A stretch of 64,000 nt of DNA from an uncultured Chloroflexia bacterium (GTDB taxonomy: Bacteria > Chloroflexota > Limnocylindria > Limnocylindrales > CSP1-4): NCBI GenBank assembly GCA_963713975.1, contig OY970218.1:2624001-2688000 (forward strand), given 5' to 3'. A model generated the notes under the pieces. It did no database searches, was not told the origin of the DNA, and saw only the letters and a program-made list of their open reading frames with translations. Numbering within the stretch: the stretch's first letter is position 1; the number at the start of each line of letters is the position of its first letter. Shown piece after piece: positions 48,063-53,985 of the stretch. The position numbers and the translations under genes were made by a program.

Positions 48063-48285
48063 CCATCGGGGTTGCCCGCGGGCACCGTTGTCGGTCCGGT
48101 GGGCGCCTTCTCCCGCCACGACGGGCAGTCTGGTGCGGTGAGGTCCGGTCCTGCCGAGTACTGCTCGCGCACCTTGGGCAGTACCATTCGGCCTGTACTC
48201 ATTGGATCCGGCACGTTTCATGGCCGGCACCGGCGGCGGAGCTCAGGGACCGCCCGCGGGGAGAACGACGAGGGAGGTATTGCAG

Positions 48286-49101
48286 ATGACTCGGGGATCC
48301 GCACTCAATCGGGATGCGAGGCGTGGAGGGATCCGCTCCATGCTCGCCACAATCATGGCTGGGGCGCTGCTGCTGGTGTTTGCCGGTAGCGCGATGGCGC
48401 ACACGCCCAGCGCCACGCTGACCTGCCAGGACGGCCTCAAGGTCGACCTGCTCTACTACGCCAACTCCAACCCCGCCAGGAACACCGTGGCCGTCTCGAT
48501 CGACGGGATCGCGGTCAGCGGCTCGCCGTTCACGTTCGGCACGACGTTCCACGGCCAGTGGGCGGTGTTGCCGGCGACGGCGGCGCACACGGCCAAGGTC
48601 GTGATCGACGCCTGGGACGGCAGCCACGGCACCCAGTACGACAAGACGTACAACCTGCAGATCGGCGTCTGCCAGCAGCCGACCCCGACTCCGACGGTCG
48701 CGCCCACGCCCACGCCCACGCCGACGGTCGCGCCCACGCCCACGCCGACGGTCGCGCCGACCCCGACTCCGACGGTCGCGCCCACGCCCACGCCGACGGT
48801 CGCCCCGACCCCGACCCCGACGGTCGCGCCGACCCCGACCCCGACGGAAACGCCGACGGAGACCCCAACGGAAACGCCGACGGAGACTCCCATCGAGCCG
48901 ACCCCAACCCCGTCAGGCGACGTTGGGGGAGCCACCGGGACACCCGCACCGACGTCCAGCCCGGGCGTGACCCCGCCCTCGACGGATGGCGTGACCCCGG
49001 GTGACACGGGCAGCGGTCCCGGCGCGGGCCTGGCGCTCGTGCTCATCCTGCTCGCGGGTTCGTCGCTCGCCCTCCTCCCGGCTGCGAACCGCCGTCGCTA
49101 G
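48286..49101 (+). CDS. exported Pro/Thr-rich surface protein with C-terminal sorting-like signal
   Basis: Signal peptide ending AMA, small beta domain with 2 Cys, (PT)n stalk, PPSTD-spacer-TM-NRRR; SD GGAGG. Confidence 0.85.
48678..48910 (+). repeat. coding tandem repeats (PTPTVA / TPTE)
   Basis: Imperfect ~24-bp and 12-bp units inside the surface protein gene. Confidence 0.85.
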
Positions 49102-49234: not shown

Positions 49235-50248
49235 TCAGCGCAGGCTGGCCGGCTCCGGGACCGGGCCGCCCGTCTCAGCCCGCGGGCTGCCACCATCGGT
49301 CGGGGGATCGAGGGATCGTGCCGGCTCAGTGTCTGCAGAGACGCTTGCCCGCCCTCGCGCCGTGACGATCAGCACGACCGCCACAAGGATCACCACCGAC
49401 GCAACGAGGGTCCTCTCCGTCAGCGTCTCGCCCAGGATGAGCCAGCCGAGGATCACAGCGACCACAGGGTTGACGTAGGCGTATGTCGACACCCGGCGGA
49501 GCGGCGCGACGGTGAGGAGCCACGCGAACGTGGTGAACCCGACCAGGCTGCCGACCACCACGAGGTAGACGATCCCGAACCAGCTGGTCGCCGACACGGC
49601 CGACAGCTCGAAGCCGGCCGTCTCGCCCGTGACGAGCGCGGCAACGAGGAATGCGATGCCGCCAGCGACCATCTGGAGGCCGGTCGAGAACAGCACAGGC
49701 CGGGGCAGGACGGCCCGTTTCGCCGCGTACAGCGTCCCCATCGACCATAAGAGGGGCGACACGATGAGTGCCAGCAGGCCGGCCGGGTCCAGGTCGCCGG
49801 CACCACCCGCCGGCCACGCGAGGATCGCCACGCCGACGAGGCCGACGGCGATGCCGATCGTGGCCACTGCCGGCATACGGTCACCGAACAGGATCCGGCC
49901 GAAGATCGCGAGCCACATCGGGACGAGGGCCACGAGGATCGCCGCGATGCCCGTCGGGATGGTCTGCTGCCCCCATGCCACGAGGCCGGTCCCGCCGAGC
50001 AGGAGCAGGGCCCCCACGATGGCGGCGTCCCGGACCTGCACGCCCGTCGGCCTGCTGATGCTGCCTCGAGACCGGATGGCGACCCCGCCCGCCAGGAGGA
50101 TCCCCGCGGGCACGAACCGGATGAAGCCCATCACGAAGGGAGGGATCGTGTCGATCGCCAGCTTCATCCCGAGATACGTGGATCCCCAGACGATATAGAG
50201 CACGATGAGGCCGGACCAGACGGCGAGAGGGCTGGGGCTTGACCGCAT
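49235..50248 (-). CDS. EamA/DMT family transporter (YedA-like)
   Basis: LYIVWGSTY, about 10 TM segments, STYAYVNPVVAVILG. Confidence 0.93.
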   Translation of the reverse strand: MRSSPSPLAVWSGLIVLYIVWGSTYLGMKLAIDTIPPFVMGFIRFVPAGILLAGGVAIRSRGSISRPTGVQVRDAAIVGALLLLGGTGLVAWGQQTIPTGIAAILVALVPMWLAIFGRILFGDRMPAVATIGIAVGLVGVAILAWPAGGAGDLDPAGLLALIVSPLLWSMGTLYAAKRAVLPRPVLFSTGLQMVAGGIAFLVAALVTGETAGFELSAVSATSWFGIVYLVVVGSLVGFTTFAWLLTVAPLRRVSTYAYVNPVVAVILGWLILGETLTERTLVASVVILVAVVLIVTARGRASVSADTEPARSLDPPTDGGSPRAETGGPVPEPASLR

Positions 50249-50402
50249 ATCCTGGTGCGTGCTCCTGCTCCGGGGAAGGCCGAGTGTAACGGCGGTGACG
50301 GACCTTGCGCTACCCGAGTAGGCCAAGTTGCGACAAGGTTGCGGCGACGGTGGGACAGCCCGGAAGGTTCGGATCGACTGCGTTCGGCAGGCGGAGGTCG
50401 TC

Positions 50403-51233
50403 CTAGGCGGCCGGCTCGAGCGCCGTCGGCCGGCAGACCTTGCACGGACGGTATCCGGCCTCCCCGGCGGCGCGGAGCGACCTGAACGACACTCGATAGC
50501 GGGGCTGCGTCCGGCGGGCGTGGCGGCAGGTGGGCCAGCACACGATCCGCGTCGTCTTCGAGCCCGTGAGGCGTTCGCCGCGGCGGGCGGCGTCCTCCAG
50601 GGCAGCCGGGTCGAGGCCCTCCGACTCGAGGATCGTGCGCTTGTTGCCGGGTCCGCCCAGGCTGTACTGGCCGATCGTGCCGTCCGTCCGGACGACGCGG
50701 TGGCAGGGCACGATGAGCGGTACCGGGTTGTGGCCGAGCGCCGTCCCGACGGCTCGAACCGCCTTCGGCCGCCCGATCTCCGCCGCGATCCAGCCGTACG
50801 GCCGCACCTCGCCCGGTGGGATCTCGAGCGCCTTGCTCCACACCGCCACCTCGAACTCGGTCCGGCCCCGCAGGTCGAGCGGGATCCGGACCCGTCGCTC
50901 TCCGGCCAGGCGGCGGGCGATCGCATCGGCGAGGGCATCGGGGAGGGCGTCGGCCGGCAGCGTTCGCCGCCCGGAACGTGCCTCGTGTCGAGCGAGGGCC
51001 TCTCCACCGTCGGCCGCAAGCTCGACCTCCGCGACGCCGCGACCGTTCCACGCGACCCACAGCGTGCCGATGGGGGAGGGGACGGGCGCCATGCGATCGA
51101 CCAGCCCGACCTCCACGAGCACGTCCTCGGCGAGCCCCGTCGGTGCAGGGACGGCCAGGGCAGCGAGACGGCCGGCTCCGTCGTCGTAGGCATCGAGTGG
51201 CGTGGATGGGTTGGTTCGGGGCGAGCGGGTCAT
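50403..51233 (-). CDS. methylated-DNA-protein-cysteine S-methyltransferase with C-terminal Ada zinc-binding domain
   Basis: RAVGTA..NP...PCHRV active site; C-terminal TTRIVCWPTC...GYRPCKVCRP. Confidence 0.92.
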   Translation of the reverse strand: MTRSPRTNPSTPLDAYDDGAGRLAALAVPAPTGLAEDVLVEVGLVDRMAPVPSPIGTLWVAWNGRGVAEVELAADGGEALARHEARSGRRTLPADALPDALADAIARRLAGERRVRIPLDLRGRTEFEVAVWSKALEIPPGEVRPYGWIAAEIGRPKAVRAVGTALGHNPVPLIVPCHRVVRTDGTIGQYSLGGPGNKRTILESEGLDPAALEDAARRGERLTGSKTTRIVCWPTCRHARRTQPRYRVSFRSLRAAGEAGYRPCKVCRPTALEPAA

Positions 51234-51808
51234 GCGGACAGCTCCTCGAGATCGGTGCCGGTCATCGCCGCCCGCAGGAGCGCGAGGCCGCGGTGGACCT
51301 GTGACTTGAGGGTTCCCTCGGACCGGCCGAGGACCTCCGCGAGCTCGGCGTACGAGAGGTCGTCGACGTGGCGCAGGACGACCGGGACCCGGTAGCGCTC
51401 CGGCAGCGCGGCGAGATGCTCCGCGAGGCGCTCGCGCTGGACAAGCCGGTCGACGTGGCCCGCAGGACTCTCTCCCTGGTCCGCGGCGGGTTCCAGGCCC
51501 GCCTCCAGGAGCGGATCCAGTGGCGTTGCCGGCACGACCCGCCTCCGCGCCCGGTTACGGCACAGGTTGAGGACGATCGTGGCCAGCCATGGTCGCAGCC
51601 TCAGGTCCCGAATCCGCTCCGTGTCGTAGGACTCGAGCGCCCTGTATGCACGGATCATGGCGTCCTGGGCAACCTCCTCGGCGTCGTGGGGGTTGCCGGT
51701 GACCCGGAGCGCGATCGAGTGACATCGATCCACGTGGGCACGGACCAGCAGCTCGAACGCGCCGTCGAGGTCGTGGGCAAGCCGATCCGTGAGCTCGTTG
51801 TCGTCCAT
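51230..51808 (-). CDS. ECF RNA polymerase sigma factor
   Basis: DAEEVAQD, WLATIVLNLCRN (region 2), LPERYR...LSYAELA...GTLKSQVHRG (region 4); ATGA overlap with the Ogt gene. Confidence 0.93.
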   Translation of the reverse strand: MDDNELTDRLAHDLDGAFELLVRAHVDRCHSIALRVTGNPHDAEEVAQDAMIRAYRALESYDTERIRDLRLRPWLATIVLNLCRNRARRRVVPATPLDPLLEAGLEPAADQGESPAGHVDRLVQRERLAEHLAALPERYRVPVVLRHVDDLSYAELAEVLGRSEGTLKSQVHRGLALLRAAMTGTDLEELSA

Positions 51809-51818
51809 CACCCTCCAG

Positions 51819-51845
51819 AACCCGGCCCCGGGCCGGTCGGTTGCA
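51819..51845 (-). promoter_or_regulatory. putative ECF-type autoregulatory promoter
   Basis: Minus strand TGCAACC-N16-GGTT immediately before the sigma start. Confidence 0.5.
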
Positions 51846-51930
51846 GGCGCGAATCCCGGCACCCTTGACGAACGATAGCGATACCGGGCCGGGTCGTCGG
51901 CGACCGCATGCCGCGTGCCACAATGCGGCC

Positions 51931-52938
51931 ATGCGCCTCGATGATCGCTTCGACGACCTGGTCGCCAGCCTGGGCGGGTTCTACCGCACCTGGTTCGTGT
52001 ACACGGGCCTCGAGCTCGGGCTGTTCGCGCGACTGCGCGACGGTGGCGCGGCGGGTCTCACGGTGGACGAGCTGGCGCGCAGGACGGGGACGGAGCCCGC
52101 GCTGATTGGACGCTGGGCCTGGGGCGCCGACGCCCACGACCTGATCGAGGTGTCCGACGGCCGGCTGCGCGTGACGGACGACGTGGCGTCCATCCTGCTC
52201 GCGGCGGACAGGCCCGAGTACCTGGGCGGGCAGTTCCTCCATGCGGCCATCGGGAGCCTGGACTTCGCGGATCTGCTCGACGTGTTCCGGACCGGCGTTC
52301 CGCGGACCTCGCGTCCCGATCGGTATCGCGAGGCCATCGCTCGCCTGACCGTGCAGGACATCGCGGTCTTCTTCCAGGAGGTCCTGCCCGCGATCCCGCA
52401 GCTCGTGGTGGACCTGCAGCCGGGCAGCCGGATCGTCGACGTCCACTGCGGCGGCGGCCGCTGGCTGATCGCCATGGCGCGACGGTTCCCGGGGACGATC
52501 CTGACCGGCGTGGAGTTCGAGCCGGACTCGGCGGCCCGGGCCCGGGCTGCTGTCGCGGAGGCCGTGCTGGGGGACCGTGTGTCCATCGAGCTGGGCGACG
52601 TCCACGCGATCGGCCACAGCGGAGAGGCAACGCTGGCGTACTTCCAGCGTGCCCTGCACCAGCTGTCCGAGCCGGTTTCTGCGTTGCGCTCCGCCTGGGG
52701 CGCGCTGGCGCCCGGCGGCTGGCTCGTGGCGCTGGACTGGTACCTGCCGACTGACCCCGATGAGCTGCGTACCCGCCACAGCGAGCTGCTCGCGGGCGTC
52801 CAGCTGGACGAGGTGCTGGGCGGGACCCGCCTCGTCACGGGCCCGGAGGCCCTGGGCTGGTTCGCGTCCGCCTCCATCCCGACGCCCGCGATCATCGATC
52901 TGCCGTCGGGTGCGACGGCGATCGTCGCCCACCGGTAG
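51931..52938 (+). CDS. class I SAM-dependent methyltransferase with N-terminal winged helix
   Basis: GLELGLF..L, degenerate motif I VDVHCGGG, LAPGG; CACAAT 6 nt upstream. Confidence 0.85.
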   Translation: MRLDDRFDDLVASLGGFYRTWFVYTGLELGLFARLRDGGAAGLTVDELARRTGTEPALIGRWAWGADAHDLIEVSDGRLRVTDDVASILLAADRPEYLGGQFLHAAIGSLDFADLLDVFRTGVPRTSRPDRYREAIARLTVQDIAVFFQEVLPAIPQLVVDLQPGSRIVDVHCGGGRWLIAMARRFPGTILTGVEFEPDSAARARAAVAEAVLGDRVSIELGDVHAIGHSGEATLAYFQRALHQLSEPVSALRSAWGALAPGGWLVALDWYLPTDPDELRTRHSELLAGVQLDEVLGGTRLVTGPEALGWFASASIPTPAIIDLPSGATAIVAHR

Positions 52939-52952
52939 CGGCGGGCCGGCGG

Positions 52953-53375
52953 TCAGTCCGCCTTCGCGTCCGCCGAGCAGGCCGGGCACAGCCCGCGGAA
53001 CACGACCTGGGCCTCGTCGATGGTGGCGCCCGCCAGCCCGGCATCCAGGCAGGGCTTCGCCCCGGTGACGCAGGGAACGTCCAGGACGACCCCGCAGCGG
53101 CGGCAGACAAGGTGGTGATGCCAGGTGCCGGCGACCTCGTACCGAGCCGCCCCCGGTCCCGCATCGGCCACGAGCAGGACGCCGCCCGCGGCGAGCGCGC
53201 CAAGGGCGTGGTAGAGGCTCGCCCGGGGAAGTGGCGTGGCGCTGCTGCGGAGGGCAGCGGCGATCTCGTCGGCGGTCGGGTGCCCGCCAAGCGATGCCAG
53301 CGCGTCGATGACGGCGACGCGCTGGCGGGTCACCCGCAGCCCGGCATCCCGGAGCCGGACGGCGGCGTCGGTCAT
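52953..53375 (-). CDS. Fur family regulator (FurA/PerR-like)
   Basis: LRVTRQR, HPTADE, HHHLVCRRCG, GLCPAC. Confidence 0.93.
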   Translation of the reverse strand: MTDAAVRLRDAGLRVTRQRVAVIDALASLGGHPTADEIAAALRSSATPLPRASLYHALGALAAGGVLLVADAGPGAARYEVAGTWHHHLVCRRCGVVLDVPCVTGAKPCLDAGLAGATIDEAQVVFRGLCPACSADAKAD

Positions 53376-53824
53376 CGGGCTTGGACGCGGAGCATCCAGC
53401 CGTGCTTCTCCAGGCCACCCGCGATGTCCAGGAGCAGGCCCTGAGTCACGAGGTCGGTGTCACCGAGGGCGGCCGCCCGACGCTCGATCCTCGATGCGAC
53501 CTCGGCCAGCCGGTCGCGCATCGCGGTCACGGCGTCCACGTCGCGCTGCCAGCCCTGGGTGGCGGCCGGGAGCGGCGAGGTCGCCGCGATCGTCGACAGG
53601 CGCCCATCGGGGGACACGTCGAGGGTTGCCAGCCGCTCCGCCACGTCGTCATACCAGAGACGGACCTGGTCCGTGATCTCGTCCAGCTGGAGGTGGACGC
53701 CGCGGAAGTCCTGACCCGTGACGTTCCAGTGGTAGTGCTTGGCCTGGAGCGACAGGTCGATCAGCTCGACGAGGCTCTCCTGGAGGGCTGCTGTGCGGCT
53801 CGTCACATCGACTGCCATGGTCAT
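53372..53824 (-). CDS. dps: DNA starvation/stationary phase protection protein
   Basis: KHYHWNVTG..F..VH..LDE...DDVAER; EKHGWM. Confidence 0.93.
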   Translation of the reverse strand: MTMAVDVTSRTAALQESLVELIDLSLQAKHYHWNVTGQDFRGVHLQLDEITDQVRLWYDDVAERLATLDVSPDGRLSTIAATSPLPAATQGWQRDVDAVTAMRDRLAEVASRIERRAAALGDTDLVTQGLLLDIAGGLEKHGWMLRVQAR

Positions 53825-53884
53825 CTCACGACTCCCGTCTGTACTACGGCTTGGGTGGGCGCAGCGTCCAGTGTATCGCCGATG

Positions 53885-53899
53885 TTGGACACAGTCCAA
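53885..53899. promoter_or_regulatory. palindromic operator, probable Fur/PerR-family box
   Basis: TTGGAC-ACA-GTCCAA about 60 bp upstream of dps-fur. Confidence 0.7.
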
Positions 53900-53985
53900 T
53901 ATGAACCGTAGCCGCGGGTCCGGGGGGCGTGCCGCGTGTCGCATCCCGCCGCGGCGGCGCGCTGCCGGCGGGCTATGGTGGAGGC

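Follow-up and report, generated by a model that had tools for sequence, protein, structure and literature searches.

Organization of the locus

The window, a stretch of 64,000 nucleotides of DNA from a Chloroflexota bacterium (Candidatus Limnocylindrales), contains a module of two genes on its minus strand. An ECF sigma factor gene (positions 51230..51808) is followed by the gene of a 276-aa protein (50403..51233) composed of an N-terminal peptide, an Ogt domain and an Ada-type Zn(Cys)4 domain. Pfam matches, the gene overlap and a complex model point to this partner protein as a probable anti-sigma factor. The sigma stop codon and the partner start codon overlap in the ATGA at 51230-51233, and the same 4-nt overlap is observed in 74 of the 75 related loci examined. 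The open reading frame of the sigma factor runs from a GTG (51230..51862). The conserved start, common to the related loci, is the ATG at 51808 ("MDDNELT"), which yields a protein of 192 aa. Pfam identifies Sigma70_r2 (4.4e-17) and Sigma70_r4_2 (5.9e-16) and no other sigma regions, and the NCBIfam model of the sigma70-ECF superfamily, TIGR02937, is matched with 90.3 bits (cut-off, 42.9). Regions 2 and 4 in the absence of region 3 or 1.1, together with the length of about 190 aa, place the protein among the ECF (group IV) sigma factors.

The pairing of the two genes is widely conserved. Of 80 related Chloroflexota loci found with the partner protein, 79 have a same-strand sigma homolog immediately upstream, and the lone exception is a locus that begins at a contig end. 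An ECF sigma gene is also immediately upstream in 69 of 79 loci from other phyla. The ATGA overlap described in the original prediction is seen across the related loci, and the adjacency on which that prediction hinged is seen in the other phyla as well. Outside Chloroflexota, the pair is found in Acidobacteriota, Acidimicrobiia, Nonomuraea, Actinomadura, Spirillospora, Streptosporangium, Dormibacterota, Eremiobacterota and others, and the loci closest to the pair of the window all come from Chloroflexota / Ca. Limnocylindrales MAGs. Partner forms from Eremiobacterota consist of a ZAS domain and Ogt without the zinc domain, yet they are still paired with a sigma factor. Judged by best-match comparisons among the 17 sigma-like ORFs of the genome, the window sigma is the best match for 62 of the 67 Ogt-linked sigmas of other phyla. 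Three fused sigma-Ogt ORFs (P0133, P0237, P0268) were considered as Rosetta-stone evidence and dropped, since one indel at the ATGA overlap yields the same fusions.

Downstream of the partner, on the same minus strand, lies a gene for an EamA-family transporter (49235..50254; Pfam EamA, 2.7e-32) whose start codon is uncertain. Of 80 related loci, 70 have a homolog in this place and orientation, and the gene is possibly co-transcribed with the module. A consensus scan found no terminator-like site between the partner and EamA genes, which is weak and uninformative evidence, and the equally uninformative consensus scan of the locus for sigma-70-type promoters gave no site. On the plus strand, a class-I SAM-dependent methyltransferase gene (51931..52938; Pfam Methyltransf_25, 3.4e-10) is divergently oriented. 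It is a conserved neighbour, with the same orientation in 66 of 80 related loci, and no role in the switch is evident for it.

Two alkyl acceptor domains in the partner protein

Both lobes of an O6-alkylguanine-DNA alkyltransferase (Ogt) are present at residues 48-207 (50613..51092, minus strand), as indicated by Pfam, TIGR00589 and the fold. The Pfam DNA_binding_1/Ogt family (PF01035) matches residues 126-206 with 6.3e-30, and TIGR00589 scores 92 bits. The PCHRV motif is formed by residues 176-180, with the codon of the acceptor Cys177 at 50703-50705. The C-terminal methylphosphotriester-acceptor domain of the Ada Zn(Cys)4 type at residues 214-269 (50427..50594, minus strand) matches Pfam Ada_Zn_binding (PF02805) with 3.6e-10 and 40.1 bits against a cut-off of 23, and it is the sole match of this family in the genome. 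Its zinc cysteines are Cys232, Cys236, Cys264 and Cys267. Among 69 orthologs, Cys177, Cys232, Cys236 and Cys267 are invariant and Cys264 is conserved in at least 90%. Residues Pro176, His178, Arg179, Arg160, Asn169, Tyr146 and Glu205 of the Ogt domain are likewise invariant in this set. From a constant offset to Cys145 of human AGT, we take Arg160, Asn169 and Tyr146 to be the arginine finger, the Asn hinge and the equivalent of Tyr114, respectively. By these conserved residues, both acceptor sites appear competent.

For the Ogt domain, Foldseek ranks OGT of M. tuberculosis (4bhb) and the C-terminal domain of E. coli Ada (1sfe) highest. Ada structures 1sfe, 1u8b, 1zgw and 1wpk are all among the Foldseek matches. 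No HTH family is found by Pfam in the 276-aa protein, and the full-length equivalog model of the Ada bifunctional regulator (NF011964) gives 108 bits, below its cut-off of 345. Pfam and ortholog conservation therefore bear out the domain reading of the original prediction, namely an Ogt domain with PCHRV followed by a C-terminal Ada zinc domain with all four cysteines and lacking the AraC HTH.

The N-terminal extension and its predicted complex with the sigma factor

An N-terminal extension of about 40 aa had been described for the partner; it comprises 47 aa, with Ogt homology beginning near residue 48-53. Residues 23-47 are conserved, and Leu26, Pro31, Gly43 and Asp46 are invariant in 69 orthologs. 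Conservation, alignment and modelling together delimit a predicted sigma-binding peptide at residues 19-47 (51093..51179, minus strand). No Pfam family matches residues 1-50 of the window protein. It contains no HxxxCxxC motif, nor any His/Cys motif ahead of residue 177, and it also lacks helices 1-2 of the class-I anti-sigma domain.

Longer homologs carry what the window protein lacks. An N-terminal zf-HC2 (ZAS) domain is present in eight of the 73 scanned representatives, all eight being Ogt+AdaZn homologs with lengths of 298-312 aa. In 12 long forms, Cys3, His29, Cys33 and Cys36 are invariant. For two long copies traced in their genomes (L167 and L198), the zf-HC2 score is above the Pfam cut-off and the gene is located behind a sigma gene. 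In a multiple alignment, the extension of the window protein aligns with the "LxxLxxxAPxxL" stretch just after HxxxCxxC of the long ZAS forms. This alignment suggests that the extension is probably a reduced anti-sigma domain, homologous to the distal part of ZAS.

Modelling of the sigma/partner pair predicts an interface with an ipSAE of 0.85 (0.84, 0.85 and 0.85 in the individual runs), while all three controls give 0.00. In a calibration made without the alignments supplied in the present analysis, 116 of 157 solved complexes attain this mark, as do 2 of 215 mismatched pairs. Because sigma/anti-sigma complexes exist in the PDB, the high score may stem from general likeness and not from actual binding by the window copy. 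At least 83% of contacts are shared between runs, and the pLDDT of the partner is at least 86. On the partner side, the interface is formed by residues 19-44 only, with no contacts from the zinc domain; on the sigma side, it comprises residues 15-56, 124-150 and 175. In the model, the extension forms two short helices (H20-25, H36-41) and lies between regions 2 and 4 of sigma. Sigma residues 43-56 presumably correspond, by their position, to region 2.2, with which sigma factors mainly contact the core enzyme. On the basis of a single multiple alignment and a single structure model, the window protein is probably an anti-sigma factor.

A conserved promoter and a candidate regulon

An ECF-like promoter, read as TGCAACC-N16-GGTT in the original prediction, is present in front of the sigma gene on the minus strand. 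The -35 element TGCAACCG (51838..51845) contains GCAAC at 51844-51840, and the -10 element GGGTTC (51818..51823) contains GTT at 51821-51819, 10 nt before the ATG. GCAAC and GTT at a fixed spacing of 18 nt are invariant in 69/69 aligned sigma upstream regions, which is far beyond chance. GTT is separated from the start codon by 10 nt in 53 of these loci, by 11 nt in 14, and by 9 and 12 nt in one each. With GTT this close to the ATG, a leaderless or nearly leaderless mRNA would be expected. In other phyla, 40 of 67 sigma genes are preceded by the same GCAAC-N18-GTT, those of the Nonomuraea and Spirillospora loci among them.

For the regulon, a promoter matrix was trained solely on sigma promoters of other genomes and then scanned over the genome of the window. 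The genome's own sigma site ranks first with 25.8 bits. The next-best match (17.3 bits) precedes an HhH-GPD/AlkA-type glycosylase gene, so that the link to alkA sought by a motif search has a candidate. Further matches precede an EamA transporter gene (17.2 bits) and a 243-aa ORF (15.8 bits), and all three sites are located 7-9 nt before the gene starts. These non-self scores of 15.8-17.3 bits are to be read against a reversed-genome control with 2 matches of at least 16 bits and 1 of at least 18. The motif is found before 7 of the 13 closest AlkA-like orthologs and is absent from the other 6. A looser-motif site precedes an EamA gene of the genome other than the one downstream of the partner. 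A pattern count of 4/4 was obtained with a pattern chosen after these matrix sites had been seen. The 243-aa ORF, a weak GNAT match, is unproven as a regulon member, its motif being conserved in 0 of 29 homologous family loci, one in a same-genus genome included.

With a stricter pattern, 47 matches are obtained across 41 family genomes, versus 15 for the backwards control. Of 46 family-wide sites examined, 14 lie before the sigma gene, 5 before EamA, 2 before AlkA-like and 2 before stand-alone Ogt genes; 21 are without a recognisable repair link. EamA genes with the sigma motif occur in 5 of the 41 genomes (G009, G010, G015, G016 and G019), and MFS exporter genes are also preceded by the motif. 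The genome's own stand-alone Ogt gene has no motif match of at least 12 bits, and no link of alkB or aidB to the module was found. Taken together, the sites suggest that the sigma motif may drive alkylation-repair genes, with thin support beyond the module's own operon.

Proposed mechanism

We propose that the two proteins are a cytoplasmic ECF sigma/anti-sigma pair running an alkylation-damage regulon in this bacterium, and we put the probability of this reading at roughly 0.6. Translational coupling of the two genes would cause sigma and partner to be made together. Residues 19-47 of the partner would then wedge between sigma regions 2 and 4 and keep sigma off the core RNA polymerase, as homology and the structure model suggest. 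From their domain identities, the Ogt domain would move alkyl groups from O6-alkylguanine onto Cys177, a suicide acceptor, and the Ada-type Zn(Cys)4 domain would move methyl groups from methylphosphotriesters onto Cys232. We infer that irreversible alkylation of one or both of these cysteines may inactivate the inhibitor by unfolding, proteolysis or a change in conformation or DNA affinity. The freed sigma would transcribe from TGCAAC(C/G)G-N14-(C)G(T/G)GTT promoters, including that of its own operon, which would give positive feedback and replace the spent repair protein. Its putative targets in this genome are the AlkA-type 3-methyladenine glycosylase and the EamA exporter, joined in relatives by a stand-alone Ogt. 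In its net logic, the system would resemble the adaptive response governed by Ada, except that a sigma factor held in trans takes the place of the AraC-type output.

A stronger version of the proposal, which we hold tentatively and at somewhat below even odds, is that the partner acts as a suicide-enzyme anti-sigma factor. Each alkyl transfer from damaged DNA onto Cys177 or Cys232 would destroy one inhibitor and free one sigma. The cell would thereby keep a stoichiometric count of alkylation lesions and respond through an autoregulated repair regulon of Ogt-AdaZn, AlkA-type glycosylase, Ogt and exporters. It would amount to an Ada-independent adaptive response common to Chloroflexota, Actinomycetota, Acidobacteriota, Dormibacterota and other phyla.

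The intact and conserved Ada zinc domain would also suit a partner that helps the sigma factor. Such a sigma-bound positive factor would gain DNA affinity when its zinc cysteine is methylated, as N-Ada does, and would aid the ECF holoenzyme, with sigma providing the missing HTH output. Methylated E. coli Ada activates by touching region 4 of sigma-70 and the C-terminal domain of the alpha subunit, and the tight 1:1 coupling of the genes fits a stable partnership as well as inhibition. We nevertheless consider this unlikely. The modelled contacts come from the N-terminal peptide alone and cover sigma residues 43-56, as inhibitors do; the ZAS domain of the long homologs belongs to a family known only as inhibitors; and the Eremiobacterota forms, with ZAS and Ogt, remain paired with sigma after all without a zinc domain. 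The ZAS family also includes thiol-reactive sensors such as RsrA, so the partner might be an anti-sigma factor that responds to electrophile or oxidant attack on its zinc thiolates or on the Ogt cysteine. The long forms have a ZAS zinc site whose role could have been assumed by the Ada Zn(Cys)4 in the short forms, and EamA and MFS exporters in the regulon fit a response to small toxic molecules. On the other hand, the lesion-handling residues Arg160, Asn169 and Tyr146 of Ogt are invariant, and the AlkA-like and Ogt genes of the regulon indicate DNA alkylation, which leaves such a thiol switch with little probability as the whole explanation. Thiol attack and alkyl transfer from DNA are not mutually exclusive as signals.

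The partner could finally be nothing but a repair enzyme that shares a transcript with its own inducing sigma factor, in which case sigma activity would be set by transcription or by an unlinked regulator and the extension would have another role. That the extension of the window protein matches no family agrees with this. So do two publications: the ECF catalogue gives no putative anti-sigma factor for group ECF122 (PMC7826278), and a review names several ECF groups known without anti-sigma factors (PMC8999054). The extension is conserved, however, and aligns with the ZAS tail of the long forms, and the complex model puts it on sigma where the three controls score 0.00. An autoregulated ECF promoter without a brake would moreover lock itself on, and the retention of the 4-nt overlap in nearly every related locus is typical of stoichiometric partners. 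We regard a plain operon as improbable, and the sigma/anti-sigma pair as the preferred reading.

Relation to known systems

Nearly all understanding of the adaptive response to alkylating agents comes from Ada-type activators. To our knowledge, many phyla have no Ada that bears an HTH, and the genome of the window is likewise without one. If correct, the proposed pair would explain how alkylation repair is induced in such organisms. Consumption of an inhibitor by suicide repair would join proteolysis, partner switching and redox or conformational change as a new mode of sigma release. This small cytoplasmic pair is soluble, and its promoter is clearly delimited. The pair is present in cultured actinomycetes, which makes the idea directly testable, and it could serve as an orthogonal reporter of alkylation damage.

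In the entries consulted of the ECF catalogue (Casas-Pastor et al. 2021, NAR 49:986, PMC7826278), groups ECF122 and ECF203 have an O6-methylguanine methyltransferase at position +1, and a role in DNA repair is suggested. ECF203 also has an Ada_Zn_binding domain (1.22 per ECF). A TetR regulator is suggested for ECF203, and both groups are described there as 100% Actinobacteria. A 2022 review marks the ECF/Ogt pairing as an uncharacterised mechanism (PMC8999054). The window pair shares the methyltransferase at +1 with both groups and the Ada_Zn_binding domain with ECF203, by these catalogue descriptions and a best-match check instead of the group HMMs. The Nonomuraea, Actinomadura, Spirillospora and Streptosporangium loci share the pair, and their sigmas match the window sigma best. 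The differences from the catalogue entries are that the window organism belongs to Chloroflexota and the pair occurs in many phyla, and that the family motif is GCAAC-N18-GTT, whereas CTCAC/CGTCTAC (-35/-10) is given for ECF122 and no conserved motif for ECF203 (PMC7826278). Other ECF groups may be relevant too. From these entries, ECF/Ogt adjacency, with the Ada zinc domain in ECF203, is already listed for Actinobacteria (PMC7826278), and the novelty claimed in the original prediction was overstated. The idea that the repair protein holds the sigma factor gains from a gene placed, in 79 of 80 related loci, where an anti-sigma gene would be expected, and from the ZAS-tail alignment and the complex model. 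Our literature search found no experimental study of the ECF sigma/Ogt-AdaZn module, and the proposal, if true, would supply a mechanism and the missing anti-sigma factor for the uncharacterised ECF122 and ECF203.

A comparison with E. coli Ada shows that both proteins combine a Zn(Cys)4 and an Ogt (PCHR) domain as suicide methyl acceptors. Positive autoregulation and an AlkA-type glycosylase in the regulon, here a candidate, are further common points. Unlike Ada, the window protein has the reversed order, Ogt and then the zinc domain, and is without an AraC-type HTH; its proposed output is the release of a separate ECF sigma, in contrast to direct promoter binding by Ada.

Class-I anti-sigma factors of the ZAS type include RsrA, RslA and ChrR. 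The long homologs resemble this class (zf-HC2, PF13490) in that they begin with C-x25-H-x3-C-x2-C and are encoded behind a sigma gene. The window protein differs in that the zinc motif and the initial helices have been lost, and its sensors would be DNA-repair domains, neither ZAS thiols nor a periplasmic domain. Its predicted sigma-binding peptide, with two short helices in some 25-30 residues modelled between sigma regions 2 and 4, is also reminiscent of the short class-II anti-sigma factors CnrY and NepR. This likeness lies in the modelled structure, and a difference is that here a soluble enzyme of 276 aa carries the peptide at its N-terminus. A CnrH chain (4cxf) is found among the structure matches.

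Gene pair and domain architecture

The ECF sigma gene (51230-51808, minus strand) lies in an ORF that opens at a GTG at 51862. The ATG at 51808 is the start used in related loci. From this ATG the protein has 192 residues, the start 'MDDxxL…' being common to those loci, and Pfam finds regions 2 and 4 only. The gene shares a 4-nt ATGA (51230-51233) with that of its partner, a 276-residue protein encoded at 50403-51233 on the same strand. Pfam places the Ogt DNA-binding/active-site domain at partner residues 126-206 (6.3e-30) and the Ada zinc domain at residues 214-269 (3.6e-10), and the same search of the protein found no HTH. Against the NCBI full-length Ada model the partner reaches 108 bits where 345 are required. 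The original observation, an ECF sigma factor joined by ATGA to an Ogt-Ada zinc protein without HTH, is thus borne out in every element. In the NCBI family models the Ogt homology starts at about residue 48-53, which leaves an N-terminal extension of ~47 residues.

The closest contigs are all from Chloroflexota, most of them labelled Candidatus Limnocylindrales. A sigma homolog is found directly upstream on the same strand in 79 of the 80 loci fetched via the partner protein, the 80th starting right at the edge of its contig. The 4-nt overlap is kept in 74/75 related loci with a single sigma match; the exception, L029, has no in-frame start.

Across 69 orthologs the invariant residues comprise L26, P31, G43 and D46 in the extension, P176-C177-H178-R179, R160, N169, Y146 and E205 in the Ogt domain, and C232, C236 and C267 in the zinc domain, where C264 is at least 90% conserved. 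From the constant offset to Cys145 of human AGT, we take R160, N169, Y146 and E205 to be the arginine finger, Asn hinge, Tyr114 and Glu172 positions. With these residues in place, the Ogt domain looks catalytically competent. The AlphaFold model of the partner (mean pLDDT 80.5) is most similar to OGT of M. tuberculosis and the C-domain of E. coli Ada; its similarity to N-Ada structures is weaker. By its sequence, the partner carries two intact suicide acceptor modules.

Relationship of the partner to anti-sigma factors

Many Ogt+AdaZn proteins of 240-320 residues came up in a search of 1.84 billion representatives. Eight of the 73 scanned, all 298-312 residues long, have at their N-terminus zf-HC2, which is the ZAS anti-sigma zinc finger. 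C3, H29, C33 and C36 are invariant in twelve long forms, and the N-termini of two genomic long forms (L167 and L198) exceed the zf-HC2 cut-off. In a joint alignment with the long forms, the extension of the window protein falls on the 'LxxLxxxAPxxL' segment that follows the ZAS zinc motif; the extension alone matched no Pfam family. The partner therefore looks like a ZAS anti-sigma factor stripped of its zinc site and initial helices.

Using the long-form alignment as query, we retrieved 79 loci, spread over Acidobacteriota, Acidimicrobiia, Nonomuraea, Actinomadura, Spirillospora, Streptosporangium, Dormibacterota, Eremiobacterota, Rokubacteria, Binatia, Entotheonella and further groups. An ECF sigma gene is directly upstream of the partner homolog in 69 of them, so that the adjacency, proposed for checking across genomes, holds in this set as in the related loci. 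The 4-nt overlap occurs in 37, an HxxxCxxC N-terminus in 13 and the Ada zinc Cys pattern in 58. Of this genome's 17 sigma-like ORFs, the window's sigma is the best match, by a clear margin, for 62/67 linked sigmas, which argues that these form one orthologous group. Of the ten loci without sigma, four are cut at a contig edge and five have Ogt genes that lack the C-terminal zinc module. The remaining one, L225 from a Chloroflexota MAG, is an Ogt+AdaZn locus without an upstream ECF sigma. With PCHR at residue 138 (177 in the window protein), its product seems to lack the N-terminal extension, and the locus is a possible natural control. Six sigma-linked loci of Eremiobacterota/Vulcanimicrobiota (L226, L233, L235, L238, L239, L240) encode an HxxxCxxC N-terminus plus Ogt and lack the Ada zinc Cys pattern, so the pairing does not need the zinc module. 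Three protein representatives (P0133, P0237, P0268) are single ORFs of 435-554 residues in which an Ogt domain comes after the sigma regions; they could be genuine sigma/anti-sigma fusions or the product of artefactual frameshifts where the two genes share ATGA.

The structure model suggested for the pair gave a confident complex. Full-length sigma and full-length partner, each with a 69-row alignment, reach an ipSAE of 0.85 (runs 0.84, 0.85 and 0.85), against 0.00 for the best control; in a calibration made without user-supplied alignments, this score is reached by 116/157 solved complexes and 2/215 mismatched pairs. As solved sigma/anti-sigma complexes exist, the high score may reflect likeness to them. 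At least 83% of contacts are common to the runs, with partner pLDDT of at least 86. The confident contacts of the partner all lie within residues 19-44, and those of sigma at 15-56, 124-150 and 175. From its position, the sigma segment 43-56 ('EEVAQDAMIRAYRA') is region 2.2, the main core-binding helix, and anti-sigma factors act by covering this helix. Homology and model support binding of the N-terminal peptide to sigma, between regions 2 and 4, which should bar core polymerase.

Promoter and candidate regulon

An alignment of the 70-nt stretches preceding the sigma start covered 69 loci; L009, L032, L037, L065 and L075 were left out for uncertain starts, and loci with split sigma matches or truncated contigs had been removed earlier. 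GCAAC and GTT at 18-nt spacing are invariant, within the consensus TGCAAC(C/G)G-N14-cCG(T/G)GTT; the TGCAACC-N16-GGTT promoter noticed originally is this same element. SigR/SigH promoters, GGAAT-N18-GTT, have a similar geometry. From the end of GTT to the ATG there are 10 nt in 53 loci, 11 nt in 14, and 9 or 12 nt in one each, implying a leaderless or nearly leaderless, autoregulated sigma transcript. The motif also occurs within 120 nt upstream of 40/67 cross-phylum sigmas, among them those of Nonomuraea, Spirillospora, Acidimicrobiia, Dormibacterota and Acidobacteriota, and is mostly missing before the ZAS-long forms. One locus, L345 (G016:C185), has two motif copies 112 nt apart before a single sigma gene, 9 nt and 58 nt ahead of candidate starts.

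The 69 promoters were turned into a weight matrix, and the 3.62-Mb genome was scanned with it. The top score is sigma's own site (25.8 bits), followed by sites 9 nt ahead of the GTG start of a 218-residue HhH-GPD protein (17.3 bits), 9 nt upstream of a 310-residue EamA transporter (17.2 bits), in an intergenic region (16.1 bits) and 7 nt upstream of a 243-residue ORF with a weak GNAT match (15.8 bits). The reversed genome gave two matches of at least 16 bits and one of at least 18, so bits alone do not part the non-self sites from noise. Three of the four best non-self matches share the leaderless geometry. GCAACCG-N15-GGTTC, a pattern picked after its sites were seen, occurs four times in the genome, each time 7-9 nt ahead of one of these starts, and is absent from the reversed genome. 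Among solved structures, the HhH-GPD protein is closest to 3-methyladenine glycosylases: 2yg8 (9e-22), 2h56, Mag2 and Mag1 of S. pombe, and AlkA of E. coli (9e-9). The proposed search for the motif at repair genes thus gave a candidate site at this AlkA-like gene; the matrix scan found no motif before the genome's one further Ogt gene. No second Ada zinc domain was found in the genome.

The motif lies just upstream of 7 of the 13 closest AlkA-like orthologs and of none of 67 more distant ones. Of 23 EamA homolog loci, 4 have it within 250 nt, and the site of the 243-residue ORF is conserved in 0/29 other genomes. GCAACSG-N13-SGKGTT has 47 matches in 41 family genomes, against 15 in a backwards control. 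Among 46 sites examined, 14 are 7-12 nt before a sigma gene, with one more a second site in such a locus; five precede EamA, two AlkA-like, two stand-alone 177-residue Ogt and one MFS transporter genes. The other 21 have no recognisable link, about the number that the backwards control predicts. The sequences thus place a putative autoregulatory ECF-type promoter also in front of alkylation-repair genes. A weak 14.2-bit match at G000:C1:2623517 (minus strand), ~500 nt before the window's first base, lies 38 nt ahead of a 164-residue ORF resembling another ECF sigma; it could be chance or a sigma cascade.

Proposed mechanism and alternatives

Homology, cross-phylum context and structure model converge in support of the partner as an anti-sigma factor. 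The original interpretation is partly supported: all three favour this role, and the promoter sites favour the repair regulon. Release of sigma is a step that we infer: alkyl transfer to Cys177 and/or Cys232 would inactivate the inhibitor. Two routes seem most plausible: the alkylated Ogt fold would be destabilised and proteolysed, as alkylated alkyltransferases are, or the zinc site would undergo a charge-dependent change like that of N-Ada.

Three less likely explanations have to be set beside this. The pair could be a plain operon, the partner having no regulatory contact with sigma; the missing Pfam match of the extension would fit it, and the conservation of the extension, the structure model and the conserved overlap point to contact. 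The partner could be an Ada-like co-activator bound to sigma, which the tight coupling of the two genes would fit as well; the likeness to ZAS proteins and the peptide modelled between regions 2 and 4 speak for inhibition. In a direct thiol-alkylation switch, the zinc thiolates or the Ogt cysteine would be attacked chemically; the AlkA-like and Ogt genes behind the motif point rather to DNA alkylation. Overall, we give a probability of roughly 0.6 to the main reading, in which the sensor of this ECF sigma/anti-sigma pair is a suicide repair enzyme.

Relation to known ECF groups

ECF/Ogt adjacency as such is already known from catalogued groups. ECF122 (100% Actinobacteria) is said to have 'no putative AS factors'; its conserved +1 gene encodes an O6-methylguanine methyltransferase, and its promoter motif is CTCAC/CGTCTAC (Casas-Pastor et al. 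2021, PMC7826278). ECF203, also 100% Actinobacteria, has a methyltransferase at +1, together with Ada_Zn_binding, a TetR and an MFS, and no conserved promoter motif (PMC7826278). A 2022 review counts ECF122 with its methyltransferase among uncharacterised mechanisms (PMC8999054). Our literature searches found no experimental study of an ECF sigma/Ogt module. The reduced anti-sigma peptide, the ZAS-long forms, the cross-phylum spread, the GCAAC-N18-GTT promoter and the AlkA/Ogt/EamA regulon are absent from the accessible parts of the literature found.

Neighbouring genes

Divergent from the sigma promoter lies a class-I SAM-dependent methyltransferase gene (51931-52938, plus strand), conserved in this position in 66/80 related loci. 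Beyond it, a Fur-family regulator gene (Pfam 6.5e-17) overlaps a downstream ORF whose product looks Dps/ferritin-like (52953-53375 and 53372-53944, both minus strand); these two adjoin the methyltransferase in only 1/80 related loci. On the other side, the ORF at 48202-49101 (plus strand) encodes a long (T/A)PTPTV-type Pro/Thr repeat, a hydrophobic C-terminal segment and an RRR end, and has the look of a low-complexity surface protein, secreted or anchored.
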